Origin: a virus
Lineage: Duplodnaviria > Heunggongvirae > Uroviricota > Caudoviricetes
Strand: one strand, 5' to 3'
Length of the DNA stretch: 29,480 bases
Virus record (IMG/VR): IMGVR_UViG_2541047692_000014
The notes under the pieces were generated by a model. That model worked only from the letters and a program-made list of their open reading frames with translations, had not been told where the DNA came from and ran no database searches. Made by a program: the position numbers and the translations under genes. The number at the start of each line of letters is the position of its first letter. Position 1 is the stretch's first letter. Positions 1-3,510 of the stretch are shown piece after piece.

Positions 1-1011
1 TTATAACGTCACTCCGCCTTTTAGTGGATTCAGAGCGACGGCATTTTGCAGATAGTCAGGCGCAAGGTGCGCATAGGCCATCGTCTGCTGAATGCTCGCA
101 TGTCCCAGAATCTGTTGCAGTGCGATTATATTGCCCCCATTCATCATGAAATGGCTTGCGAATGTATGCCGCAGGATGTGGGTTGCCTGATTGGGTGGTA
201 TATCAGGTTTCACTCTGCGTAAAATCCCGCAAAATTTCTCATAATCAACTTTGAATAATTTGGCGCTGGCCTCCTCTTTAACTTTTTTCTCCAGTTCCTC
301 AGAAATCGGCACGGTTCGCTTTTTACCGTTTTTGGTTTTCAGGAAGGTAACCCTGCAATTTGTAATCTGTGCTGGTTTTAGCGTGGCAACTTCCGTCCAT
401 CTTCCTCCAGTGCTCAGACATAAAAGCGCGACAAGTAAGTCATCACCAGCCAAAACATTTAACAGTTTTTCGATTTCTGCTTTTTCCAGGAACGTCATTT
501 CAGGGTTGGCCTCCGCCAGTGGCGGCAGTCCGTGAATTGGGTGTTGCCCAGAAAATTCATCCAATTGAATTAATTTTGTGAACATGCCGGATAATCGGTA
601 CATGTCACGGTTTATCGTTGCGGCACTGATACCATCACGTAGTCGCATGGAACGATAATCCATCAAAGCCCTTTTGCTCATCCTGCTCACTGGTATATCA
701 CCTATGCCGCTGATGGTTTTGAGTAGATGATTAAACTCTTTTGTTCCATGCTCGTGGTTTTGCCCGTGATATTTCCACCAGATGTCCAGCAACTCACTCA
801 AAGTCCGGCGGTCTGCTCGCTGGCCTCCCCATTCTTTCTGACTGGCATTGGCGATTGTGTATCGCTCAAATGCTAGTGCTTCAGCTTTTCTTTCGAATTT
901 CCTGCGGATGCGTTTTCCGTCGCGACCGCGAGGTCTAATGTCCACTTCATAGCGACCATCATCGAGCTTCTTAATTGCCATAAGAAAGCCCTCCGGCGCT
1001 GTATTCACCAT
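1..1011 (-). CDS. int: Tyrosine integrase (P2 Int-like), 336 aa
   Basis: Translation has a C-terminal tyrosine recombinase signature (HTFASHFMMNGGNI...LQQILGHASIQQTMAYAHL) and sits next to the repressor at the prophage end. An internal ATG at 981 (MAIKKL...) has a better SD (GGAGG, 8 nt spacing) and may be the true start. Confidence 0.9.
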   Translation of the reverse strand: MVNTAPEGFLMAIKKLDDGRYEVDIRPRGRDGKRIRRKFERKAEALAFERYTIANASQKEWGGQRADRRTLSELLDIWWKYHGQNHEHGTKEFNHLLKTISGIGDIPVSRMSKRALMDYRSMRLRDGISAATINRDMYRLSGMFTKLIQLDEFSGQHPIHGLPPLAEANPEMTFLEKAEIEKLLNVLAGDDLLVALLCLSTGGRWTEVATLKPAQITNCRVTFLKTKNGKKRTVPISEELEKKVKEEASAKLFKVDYEKFCGILRRVKPDIPPNQATHILRHTFASHFMMNGGNIIALQQILGHASIQQTMAYAHLAPDYLQNAVALNPLKGGVTL

Positions 1012-1050
1012 CTTGGTAGCAAATGGTGAAAAGGTAATCTTTATATAGAG

Positions 1051-1344
1051 TTAGCCAATCCTTTTTGCGGAGTGGTTGGACTCTGTTGACTCTGGCCCAA
1101 TGTGCGCGAGAGCCGGTGCGATTTGTCCTGCGTCCGGCGCGGTTTTATCTGTCATAAGCCATAGAGCATATTTTTGGAATGTGGGATGCATAGTGATTTT
1201 TAGCAAAGCTGTGCCACCGGGTTCAAAGTTTCCTCCTTCATATTTTTTAAGTGTGCTTAGCGGTAACTCTATGATTTCACAGAATTTTGATTGGCTTAGC
1301 CCTTCAGCCTCACGCAAGGCCTTAATCTTTTCGCTTAATTTCAT
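1051..1344 (-). CDS. C: Immunity repressor, P2 C-like HTH protein, 97 aa
   Basis: Small HTH-type ORF (KIKALREAEGLSQSKFCEI...) transcribed divergently from cox, directly upstream of int as in P2; size close to the roughly 99-aa P2 C. Confidence 0.8.
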   Translation of the reverse strand: MKLSEKIKALREAEGLSQSKFCEIIELPLSTLKKYEGGNFEPGGTALLKITMHPTFQKYALWLMTDKTAPDAGQIAPALAHIGPESTESNHSAKRIG

Positions 1345-1465
1345 TTGACATGGTGCCTATATAGGGACTAAATTCCCTCAAAACTGGAACCTATATAGGT
1401 TCCATTGATTTGAGAATAAACCAGCGTCTAAACGGTTTTGAGTGGTTTAGAAAGGGCTGGATCCT
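1345..1465. promoter_or_regulatory. C/cox lysis-lysogeny switch region with divergent promoters and palindromic operators
   Basis: Seen in sequence: TTGACA at 1345-1350; palindrome CCTATATAGG at 1356-1365 and again inside the 18-bp perfect palindrome GGAACCTATATAGGTTCC at 1386-1403 (centres about 34 bp apart); inverted repeat AGGGA-N6-TCCCT at 1363-1378. The position between divergent repressor and cox genes matches the P2 Pe/Pc switch. Confidence 0.6.
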
Positions 1466-1753
1466 ATGAGGGTACCATATATGGACGCTGAAAATTATGT
1501 GATTCAGTATCCGCTTGATGCGGTTCATGTGGATAAATTTGCTGATTTATTAGGGAAGCCAAAGACAGCCGTCAGTGAAATGGTGAAGGCAAATAAATTA
1601 CCAATTATTGAATTGCGTGATCCTTGCAAACCGAAGGCTCGTGCCGGTGAAAAATGGGTTTTCATTCCTGAGTTTAATCGCGCTGTACGTGAGGCGTTTT
1701 ATAACCGACCGGTTGAACAGCGTGATGCATGGCTTTTGTGGATGGGGTTGTGA
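1466..1753 (+). CDS. cox: Cox/Apl-like excisionase and early transcription regulator, 95 aa (alternative start at 1481 gives 90 aa)
   Basis: First rightward small ORF after the switch region, divergent from C; size and position match P2 cox (91 aa). Sequence identity to cox was not verified. Confidence 0.7.
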   Translation: MRVPYMDAENYVIQYPLDAVHVDKFADLLGKPKTAVSEMVKANKLPIIELRDPCKPKARAGEKWVFIPEFNRAVREAFYNRPVEQRDAWLLWMGL

Positions 1754-1755
1754 TT

Positions 1756-1926
1756 ATGAATGAGCCGCGTTGTATTGCTCAGTTACTGCGTAACGAAAGC
1801 CCCAGGGCGATTGACTTCACCATCACCCACGGGAAGGGTCGCAAGGGAATCATTATCCGCACCAAAAAACAGAGTCCGTTAAAAAAGGCTCTGACCTTTC
1901 TGAAAAGCCGGAGGGTCTGGAAATGA
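1756..1926 (+). CDS. Small early protein, P2 orf78-like, 56 aa
   Basis: ORF from the internal ATG at 1756, immediately after the cox stop and overlapping the B start; the position matches P2 orf78. Confidence 0.55.
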   Translation: MNEPRCIAQLLRNESPRAIDFTITHGKGRKGIIIRTKKQSPLKKALTFLKSRRVWK

Positions 1927-2423
1927 CAGTGATGACGCTCAATCTCGTTGAAAAACAGCCAGCAGCTATGCGCCGGATAATTGGTAAGCATCTGGCCGTC
2001 CCTCGCTGGCAGGAGACATGCGATTATTATAATCAGATGATGGAACGCGAACGGCTAACGGTTTGCTTCCATGCGCAGTTAAAACAGCGTCACGCAACGA
2101 TGCGTTTTGAAGAAATGAACGACGTCGAACGTGAACGGCTGGTTTGTGCAATTGATGAACTGCGTGGGGCATTCTCAAAACGCCGTCAGGTCGGTGCAAG
2201 TGAGTATGCATATATTAGCTTTTTAACTGTCAGTCAGCGCCGTACTTTATTTATGCATGCGGGATTGACTGAAAAAGAATTCAACCAGCCATACTGGCGA
2301 ATTAATGAAGAGTCATGTTACTGGCGTGATGCTTTATTCCGTGCGTTACGTGAATTATTCAGTCTGTTTGAGTATGCGCCGACAATTCTGACGTCGGTAA
2401 AACCAGAGCAATATCTGCATTAA
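1923..2423 (+). CDS. B: Replication gene B protein (helicase-loader-like), 166 aa
   Basis: 166-aa ORF at the P2 gene B position, identical in length to P2 B; ATGA start/stop overlap with the upstream ORF. Confidence 0.75.
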   Translation: MTVMTLNLVEKQPAAMRRIIGKHLAVPRWQETCDYYNQMMERERLTVCFHAQLKQRHATMRFEEMNDVERERLVCAIDELRGAFSKRRQVGASEYAYISFLTVSQRRTLFMHAGLTEKEFNQPYWRINEESCYWRDALFRALRELFSLFEYAPTILTSVKPEQYLH

Positions 2424-2444
2424 GTAATTAACCAGAGTTTTTAA

Positions 2445-2480
2445 CGCACTTAATCGTGCGGGGCTTCTTTTTGCCTGGAG
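2445..2480 (+). terminator. Possible weak stem-loop terminator or attenuator after B
   Basis: CGCAC-TTAAT-(C)GTGCG hairpin followed by GGGCTTCTTTTT; the U-tract is not immediately adjacent. Confidence 0.3.
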
Positions 2481-2486
2481 AAAGTC

Positions 2487-2711
2487 ATGCATACAGTTTC
2501 TGAAAATCAGTGCGGTAAATACGCATTACTGCTGCAACAGGCCAGAACCGAAGCACATGCCGACGCTGCGACGCGCTTTTCTTCTCATCTTGACGCCATG
2601 ATTCGCCACATCACAAAGGCGGAGTTATCCCGCGTGGAGATAGTCGAGCTGCTCAGTCAGGAGTCGGAAAAATTTCACAATATCGGATTGTCTCGCGGGG
2701 AGGTGCTTTGA
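2487..2711 (+). CDS. Early-operon hypothetical protein, P2 orf80-like, 74 aa
   Basis: ORF with upstream SD (GGAGAAAGTC-ATG); ATGA overlap with the next ORF; the position matches P2 orf80. Confidence 0.6.
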
Positions 2712-3013
2712 TGTCCTGTTCTCATTCAGTTGTATTACTGAATAACGCCTTAAAAATCGCCGTTATGAAAAATGGCGATTTGTCTCTTATTCAACTTGGT
2801 CTTGATAAAGAAAAACGCGAAATAACTGAATATGTTATCGCGATTTATCAGAATGAATTAAACCTCCTGTCTGATGTGGTCAATTTACTTGTTAAACGCG
2901 CTGTATTCCACAAGCAAATTTCCTCCGTGGATGAACTGACGAAATTAACGACAGAAATCGCCAGCTATTGCGCTGATAAATTTAAGAAGCTGAACGACAA
3001 AAGGAGCTGGTAA
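2708..3013 (+). CDS. Early-operon hypothetical protein, P2 orf81-like, 101 aa
   Basis: ORF translationally coupled to its neighbours (ATGA at 2708-2711, TAATG at 3011-3015). Confidence 0.6.
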
Positions 3014-3510
3014 TGCCGGACAACGTAGATTTTATTCAGGAACAACAGGCTGAATTACTGGAGCGCCAGATTAACGCGGCAAGGGTAAAACATTGCGGTG
3101 TTTCTGCGCTGGTTTGCGAAGAGTGTGACGCGCCAATACCTGCTGCCCGTCGTGCGGCTTATCCATCAGCCACGCGTTGTGTTTCCTGTCAGTCAGTCTT
3201 TGAAGCAAAAAAACAAACATTACCGGAGAATGGCATGAGCATTCGTATTGAAATTGGCGAACGTTATGTCGTTACCAGTGACAGCTTTCAGTTTATTCTC
3301 CACGAGAAAAAGAGAGCGGAAAGCGGTAAAAACGCCGGTCAGGAATGGCTGTCGGTGGTTGGTTATTACCCGAAATTAAGCCAGCTCGTTTCCGGCCTGA
3401 TGCATCACGATATTCTGACCGGAAGCGCAAAGTCTTTTGCTGATTTAAACGCGCAGGTTGAGCAACTCAGCAGGCGTTGTTCAGAGGCTTTTGGCTCATA
3501 TGGCCGTTAA
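3013..3510 (+). CDS. TraR/DksA-family C4 zinc-finger protein (orf82-like) fused in frame to an orf83-like domain, 165 aa; an internal start at 3235 would give a separate 91-aa product
   Basis: N-terminal 70 aa carry a CxxC-N17-CxxC motif (CEECDAPIPAARRAAYPSATRCVSCQ) typical of TraR/DksA zinc fingers. There is no stop before the downstream segment; the in-frame ATG at 3235 has a good SD (GGAG). Confidence 0.55.
   Translation: MPDNVDFIQEQQAELLERQINAARVKHCGVSALVCEECDAPIPAARRAAYPSATRCVSCQSVFEAKKQTLPENGMSIRIEIGERYVVTSDSFQFILHEKKRAESGKNAGQEWLSVVGYYPKLSQLVSGLMHHDILTGSAKSFADLNAQVEQLSRRCSEAFGSYGR

Follow-up and report, generated by a model that had tools for sequence, protein, structure and literature searches.

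The analysis points to a paired operator of the immunity repressor C at the early promoter Pe of a P2-like (Peduovirus) prophage: two copies of the self-complementary decamer CCTATATAGG would form the cores of two sites, O1 and O2, a reading to which we assign a probability of about 0.8. Each site is dyad-symmetric and would be occupied by one C dimer. The window, by which we mean the whole stretch of 29,480 bp that was analyzed, holds the left end of the prophage in positions 1-3500. Homology, layout, conservation, and natural variants together point to the operator function and to the promoter positions, and it is from these that we infer binding, dimer stoichiometry, and cooperativity. The switch is of a known kind and has the layout of that of phage Wphi, and the sequence of its immunity class is not new.

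The gene order begins with int (1-1011, minus strand), C (1051-1344, minus strand), and cox (plus strand); then come orf78, B, and A, the last being the replication gene. The open reading frame of C encodes 97 aa with a single helix-turn-helix (HTH) domain (Pfam HTH_3), and C and cox, located next to int, lie on opposite strands and are read outward from the short stretch that separates them, as is usual for a P2-type switch. A consensus scan of region 1000-1800 gave only one promoter-like match, TTGACA-18-TAAATT, which agrees with the consensus at 10/12 positions and is a sequence prediction. Its -35 element TTGACA (1345-1350, plus strand) abuts the start codon of C, in the same register as the annotated Pe of P2 and the TTGACA of Wphi, and its predicted -10 element TAAATT (1369-1374, plus strand) follows after an 18-nt spacer; a Pe whose -35 abuts or overlaps the start codon of C is likewise a mark of P2-type switches. 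Transcription from Pe would be expected to start at about 1379-1381. P2-type switches also have a weak convergent promoter for C, Pc, which Cox represses; on the minus strand, the scan that found Pe gave no Pc promoter, although a start near 1465 would be expected. By eye, only a weak Pc candidate can be seen on that strand inside the 5' end of cox (ATCACA at 1503-1498 and TATGGT at 1480-1475, with a 17-nt spacer). The cox gene itself (Pfam Phage_Cox, plus strand) is listed, and annotated in L-413C, as starting at the in-frame ATG 1466, which would give 95 aa; this ATG is probably not the start. We favor ATG 1481, giving a gene at 1481-1753 that encodes 90 aa, in view of the alignment with the start of Wphi cox, a GAGG sequence 9 nt upstream, and the 273-nt cox called by RefSeq/PGAP in identical E. 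coli prophages.

The first decamer lies at 1356-1365, exactly where the preliminary description had placed it, and its claimed location between TTGACA and the -10 element was borne out. The second had been given as 1391-1400 and is in fact at 1390-1399, and both direct reading and a pattern search put the start-to-start distance, estimated earlier at about 34 bp, at exactly 34 bp. A pattern search of the whole window found no third match to CCTATATAGG, even when one mismatch was allowed. The 18-bp perfect palindrome GGAACCTATATAGGTTCC that had been reported around the second copy is present at 1386-1403 and extends to a perfect palindrome of 20 bp, TGGAACCTATATAGGTTCCA (1385-1404), which is the sole perfect palindrome of at least 14 bp in the window, while only 0.09 palindromes of at least 18 bp are expected per shuffled window. 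The first copy is located inside an imperfect 20-bp dyad, TGGTGCCTATATAGGGACTA (1351-1370), in which 8 of the 10 pairs are complementary. We refer to the imperfect dyad as O1 and to the perfect palindrome as O2, each being in a position homologous to the site of the same name in Wphi: O1 fills the spacer between the -35 and -10 elements and extends over two bases into the latter, and O2 lies directly downstream of the predicted Pe start. When the half-sites are read from the outside to the center, they are TGGTGCCTAT, TAGTCCCTAT, TGGAACCTAT, and TGGAACCTAT, with the common form TGGWNCCTAT. Because each decamer is self-complementary, the descriptor used for the family, "non-palindromic direct repeats," does not fit here, and the sites in the window are direct repeats and palindromes at once.

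A further dyad that had been placed between the two copies, AGGGA-N6-TCCCT, does exist as a sequence match at 1363-1378, but it does not lie wholly between them: it shares AGG with the first copy and encloses the -10 element. It is composed of the right end of O1 and a TTCCC that follows the -10 element, and TTCCC is found at that place in several related classes as well, including Wphi and P37. We considered this dyad as a third operator and rejected it, since neither of the nearest classes, L075 and L078, has it and common alleles disrupt it: T1374C, which 80 of 420 E. coli prophages possess, destroys its innermost pair, and C1375T in resident prophages also breaks the dyad. It looks incidental.

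Region 1000-1800 is 99.3-99.8% identical to the corresponding regions of the Yersinia phage L-413C and of R18C, FSL SP-004, P24B2, P2_AC1, and vB_YpM_50, and equally to that of the P2-like prophage of E. coli O157:H43 T22, while its identity to Wphi is 72.6%. The immunity class is the L-413C/R18C/FSL SP-004 class, which is common and has already been sequenced. The literature searched yielded no operator study and no binding or transcription experiment on this class. The C operators of three related phages were mapped by the Haggard-Ljungquist laboratory. That of P2 consists of 8-bp repeats spaced by 22 bp around the -10 element, that of P2 Hy dis of 8-bp repeats spaced by 26 bp around the -35 element, and that of Wphi of 10-bp half-sites with centers 34 bp apart around the -10 element of Pe (PMC1904268), where O1 is TATTGGTGAC (PMC1904263). 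Two half-sites 22-34 bp apart around Pe are what a P2-type switch contains, and the window has the Wphi form of this arrangement, with 10-bp half-sites 34 bp apart flanking the -10 element: the TTGACA of Wphi begins at 646 and its repeats begin at 658 and 692, and the equivalents in the window are at 1345, 1356, and 1390. The preliminary description had set the palindromes against the direct repeats of P2. A departure of the layout from the P2 family does not hold, because the length, spacing, and position of the sites are those of the mapped Wphi operator; comparison with the mapped operators reveals the architecture of Wphi with a different repeat sequence.

The likeness to Wphi, which belongs to P2-like immunity class III, goes further. 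In both, the repressor has 97 aa (56% identical) and C (minus strand) is placed face to face with cox (plus strand); both also have a TTGACA that abuts the start codon of C, one repeat in the promoter spacer and the other just past the start, and a stem-loop around O2. They differ in the repeat, which is TATTGGTGAC in Wphi and CCTATATAGG in the window, where the sites are palindromic, in the spacer of Pe (17 nt in Wphi and 18 nt in the window), and in about 19 extra nt in the Pc region beside cox of Wphi; moreover, the Wphi operator was mapped by mutagenesis and EMSA, whereas that of the window is predicted from sequence. P2 shares with the window a homologous C, two repeats flanking the -10 element of Pe, and a -35 element that overlaps the C start, but its 8-bp repeats (GTTTAGAT) are non-palindromic and 22 bp apart, its specificity residues differ, and its C cannot bind a single half-site. 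The repressor of P2 Hy dis belongs to this protein family too, and its operator likewise works with two repeats. Identity of the window with Hy dis was considered and rejected, because primer A3-44 is similar but not identical to 1301-1316 of the window and the Hy dis half-sites flank the -35 element. Phage 186 is also P2-like and has convergent lytic and lysogenic promoters and a CI that binds inverted repeats, but this CI is a two-domain protein of 192-196 aa that acts as wheels of dimers with distal operators, alongside CII; the window, in contrast, encodes a one-domain C of 97 aa followed by cox, orf78, and B, as in P2. The symmetric dimers of P22 c2 and 434 repressor on dyad operators of 14-20 bp offer another parallel. 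P2 C can be superposed on P22 c2, both having helices 26 Å apart (PMC2995052), and controller protein C.Esp1396I binds directly repeated palindromes cooperatively with one dimer per site (PMC2995052). None of these three is closely related to the window C in sequence, however, and the spacing of the C.Esp1396I sites is 15 bp instead of 34. In lambdoid switches, divergent promoters share three palindromic operators that the repressor and Cro both read, and the repressor carries an oligomerization/cleavage domain (S24 peptidase) at its C terminus, whereas the window C has no peptidase domain, there are two sites rather than three, and the promoters of the homologous Wphi switch are convergent.

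The conservation of the sites could be followed in a large number of prophages. Of 5426 complete E. coli genomes, 420 (7.7%) contain the 81-bp operator stretch, each as a single chromosomal copy; within these 420, the O1 stretch (1343-1372) is exact in 407, with 13 deviating somewhere, and the O2 stretch (1380-1409) is exact in 415, with five deviating somewhere. Positions 1335-1415 are identical in 14 of 18 phage records. In a class sample of 38 sequences, made up of the window, L-413C, HQ103, and 35 IMG/VR contigs, to which three E. coli prophages were added later, changes in the decamers or arms occur only in L-413C and R18C among the sequences compared, and both decamers are unchanged in the 39 others (36 of the 38 plus the three prophages). 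An allele noted nearby is T1374C, which converts the -10 element TAAATT into TAAATC by altering the normally invariant last T and is exact in 80 of the 420 E. coli genomes that carry the class; the early promoter of these prophages may be weakened. Among the variants at 1373-1375 (L056, L057, L058, and L027), one genome also has T1373C and another C1375T.

The repressor of the window is 100% identical to gpC of L-413C, and its identity is 55.7% with Wphi C and 43.2% with P2 C; it matches the P2 C structures 2XCJ/2L49 over residues 3-97 (E = 1.9e-21). Its alignment with 15 other C proteins contains 14 invariant columns, and it is the small, single-domain HTH_3 repressor of 97 aa, homologous to P2 C, that a P2-type switch would have. 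The residues that determine specificity in P2, Y31, S35, Y36, and R41, are replaced by L, K, K, and N in the aligned window C, and the recognition helix reads LSTLKKYEGGN in the window, LGTVKNYESGH in Wphi, and YGTLSYYESGR in P2. The classes with an L,K,N,H helix (Wphi, SI7, and P37) have a common TGAC core, and those whose helix ends in KKYE-G/T-GN have CCTATAT in common; across the aligned classes, the predicted recognition helix and the putative operator change together. The different recognition helix and the different repeat sequence support a distinct immunity specificity. The proposal of an immunity distinct from that of P2 thus stands, by virtue of the 43% identity of C, the helix residues, and the repeat, but the palindromy invoked for it is not the reason, and the 97 aa of the repressor, also taken as a sign of different immunity, is simply the length usual in the Wphi clade. 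That the sites are C operators at the early promoter, as had been assumed at the outset, is very probable in view of the Wphi-like layout, the conservation, and the natural variants described below.

The two phages that deviate in the sites are both associated with lytic growth. L-413C is a clear-plaque, lytic mutant of the temperate L-413 (PMC3448106; PMC2893161), and R18C was described as virulent/lytic by its authors, although without a lysogeny test (PMC6823313). L-413C (L001) carries C1356A in O1, C1402A in the outer arm of O2, and T1373C in the -10 element, whereas R18C (L041) carries G1364T in O1 and C1390T in O2. The C proteins of both are identical to that of the window, as is the Cox of R18C. 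All four operator substitutions hit bases that are common to the four half-sites (G3, C6, C6, and C7 of TGGWNCCTAT). Binomial estimates made by hand give P ~0.007 for R18C, in which 2 of 15 rare changes fall in 20 of 2418 nt, and P ~0.005 for L-413C, in which 2 of 7 changes fall in 40 nt. In Wphi and P2, repression withstands the mutation of a single half-site and fails only when both are hit (PMC1904268), and the presence of one substitution per putative site in each phage matches this two-half-site rule. The paired operator changes may explain the lytic growth of L-413C and R18C, an explanation that we did not find stated in the literature searched. Since L-413C also has T1373C and the private changes P51L in Cox and M122I in Int, the operator changes are not a proven cause of its clear plaques. 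The viability of lytic L-413C with T1373C suggests, in turn, that 1373 is not the essential last T of the -10 element, which fits the 1369-1374 register. The Yersinia phage HQ103 (L005) has wild-type operators, and its C is frameshifted and matches in two pieces; its region is 7 nt shorter, and the annotated C product is 61 aa. The frameshifted C is a different route to lytic growth on Y. pestis.

Two readings that deny the sites a role in repression by C have to be weighed against these observations. If the repeats were a chance product of low-complexity, TATA-rich promoter sequence without a specific role, the AT-rich, promoter-like TATATA core would find an easy explanation, but 0.20 matches to CCTATATAGG are expected in the window and two copies were reached in only 1 of 100 shuffles, whereas exactly two occur and stand at the Wphi spacing. 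The presence of the only long perfect palindrome in 29.5 kb, the near-invariance of the sites in hundreds of prophages, and the enrichment of operator mutations in the lytic variants also speak against chance, which we find scarcely credible. That the palindromes are bound not by C but by Cox (which acts as excisionase and Pc repressor) or by a host protein such as IHF or Fis is very unlikely for other reasons. Proteins of the Cox family do bind within the same intergenic region in P2-like phages (PMC3936717). The sites, however, are placed on Pe exactly at the position bound by C in Wphi, they co-vary with the recognition helix of C, and the phages mutated in them are described as lytic although their C is intact, as would be expected if the sites are C operators. 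The annotated Pc of Wphi, in addition, adjoins cox and is far from Pe. Wphi Cox reportedly blocks Pc, according to Liu and Haggard-Ljungquist in 1999, and the cox side of the region has a different repeated element of its own. This second conserved inverted repeat, CCAGC-TCTAAAC-N11-GTTTAGA-GCTGG (1421-1460), which was recognized by sequence comparison, lies upstream of the ribosome-binding site of cox, and its outer arms covary across classes (CCAGCC/GGCTGG, CCAACC/GGTTGG, and CCAGTCCCT/AGGGACTGG); the annotated Pc feature of Wphi ends beside the equivalent repeat. The element at 1421-1460 may be the Cox/Pc region or a 5' stem-loop of the Pc (C) transcript.

How the C dimer reads its sites is a separate matter from whether they are C operators. 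The P2 C family is described as binding non-palindromic direct repeats, while the crystal dimer of P2 C is symmetric, with recognition helices 26 Å apart as in the palindrome-binding P22 c2, and the authors of the structure proposed that one monomer is bound outside the repeat (PMC2995052). When 16 aligned C proteins were used to scan IMG/VR, 80 loci were obtained (L059-L138), and removal of redundancy left 33 switch regions belonging to the 97-aa clade. The mean dyad symmetry of these 33 regions has two maxima, one 15.5 nt (z 4.4) and the other 48.5 nt (z 3.2) away from the first T of the -35 TTGACA, the positions of O1 and O2, respectively. Clear dyads, 16-22 bp in length, are present in many classes, among them GGTTCC-N6-GGAACC, ATGCC-N6-GGCAT, CTTCCTATATAGGAAG, and AAGATAACC-N4-GGTTATCTT. 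When O1 and O2 were compared on 20-bp frames, for which the 95th percentile of the null was 11/20, the two sites were direct repeats of each other in 10 of the 33 classes, inverted in 12, as in the P37 type (TTAATGAC ... GTCATTAA), and related both ways or palindromic in 11. The inverted orientation in 12 of the 33 classes means that the "direct repeat" rule is not general; inverted sites would be unusable for a strict direct-repeat reader and usable by a symmetric dimer on each site, which favors one dimer per dyad. The published descriptor "non-palindromic direct repeats" therefore looks too narrow for these putative operators, with homology not in doubt.

The more perfect palindrome of O2 might also have an origin at the level of RNA. 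An extended imperfect inverted repeat, CTCAAA...TTTGAG (1377-1414, plus strand), surrounds O2 and is predicted to fold into a 5'-proximal stem-loop of the Pe transcript (-11.5 kcal/mol, z -3.5), and about 30 of the 33 related switch regions, including that of Wphi, are predicted to have an equivalent stem of 8-13 bp in this position. For an 11-pair stem named by hand in the 33 regions, 73.8% of the cells are paired versus 62% in shuffles, and 40 cells have changed on both sides versus 15.8 in shuffles; none of 500 shuffles reached the observed values, and registers slid along the sequence scored lower. RNAalifold predicted no pairs on the MAFFT alignment of the part 3' of the -10 element, in which the loops were misaligned, and the stem gave no real match in Rfam, only a chance miRNA hit of 18 bits against a gathering score of 90. 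The annotated Pe feature of Wphi ends at the base of the equivalent stem, so that the stem would be the 5' end of the early transcript; it may stabilize the early mRNA. A terminator-like call at 1385-1404 was rejected because the T-rich tail is weak, and a terminator is also contradicted by the equivalent stems of other classes, which carry the U-run inside the stem.

Such a stem underlies the most serious alternative to symmetric reading, in which C would read the decamers solely as direct repeats, with one specific monomer per dimer, and the palindromy of O2 would come from the need for an mRNA stem-loop. The stem centered on site 2 is indeed widespread and covaries, it reaches 30-36 bp and so runs past the 20-bp footprint, classes with the same recognition-helix residues have different yet compensating outer stems, and Wphi and SI7 possess the stem despite their non-palindromic repeats; the fold predicted for the window fits in with this as well. 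The first copy, however, is self-complementary too and part of an 8/10 dyad, although it lies in the promoter spacer outside the Pe transcript, and the dyad symmetry across classes is strongest precisely at site 1. The substitution C1402A of L-413C is found in the outer arm, not in the repeated decamer, and the mutual inversion of the sites noted above is hard to reconcile with a strict direct-repeat reader. In Wphi, repression is still normal in constructs whose 5' arm has been shortened by 6 or 10 nt (PMC1904263), which indicates that the stem is not part of repression there and that stem and operator are separable and able to coexist. We regard this alternative as the less likely one. The direct-repeat/stem reading and the symmetric-dimer reading are not mutually exclusive, and the RNA stem could be a partial explanation for the palindrome of O2 being more perfect than that of O1.

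The working of the paired C operator can be pictured as follows. O1 (~1351-1370) would lie in the spacer between TTGACA and TAAATT and O2 (~1385-1404) just past the transcription start, with their centers 34 bp, or about three helical turns, apart on opposite sides of the -10 element. Two C dimers would bind them cooperatively, bend the DNA, and exclude RNA polymerase from Pe; with Pe blocked, cox and the replication genes would remain silent and the lysogen would be immune to phages of the same class. A dyad-symmetric site would allow both HTH units of the symmetric C dimer to make equivalent contacts, as in P22 c2, 434 repressor, or C.Esp1396I. That one dimer occupies each 20-bp dyad, with the class of the window as the fully symmetric case, seems to us somewhat better than an even bet on the sequence comparisons. 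The distance of about 15 bp between the conserved outer bases (GGT...ACC), wider than usual for a helix spacing of 26 Å unless the DNA is bent, counts against it, as does the fact that symmetry is not required in the family, given that the C proteins of Wphi and P2 use non-palindromic repeats.

Wphi has already provided an example of this kind of switch and of its layout, and the gain is accordingly incremental, but the switch sets the immunity of a very common class of E. coli prophages and of the plague-diagnostic phage L-413C. The location of the operator would provide a concrete explanation for the lytic L-413C and R18C and may be relevant to the use of P2-like phages in diagnostics or therapy. 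A naturally palindromic operator would also be the cleanest substrate for the question of how the symmetric C dimer reads DNA, which dates from the crystal structure of P2 C in 2010. A broader proposal, which we put forward tentatively and at slightly less than even odds, is that P2-type C proteins in general bind dyads of about 18-20 bp as symmetric dimers, that the "direct repeats" are the better-conserved halves of these dyads, and that O2 doubles as an mRNA stem-loop. If this is true, it would explain the direct, inverted, and palindromic arrangements alike, with the class of the window as the symmetric extreme, and would resolve how a symmetric P2 C dimer acts on non-palindromic repeats, and one and the same sequence would serve as a protein-binding site and as an RNA structure.
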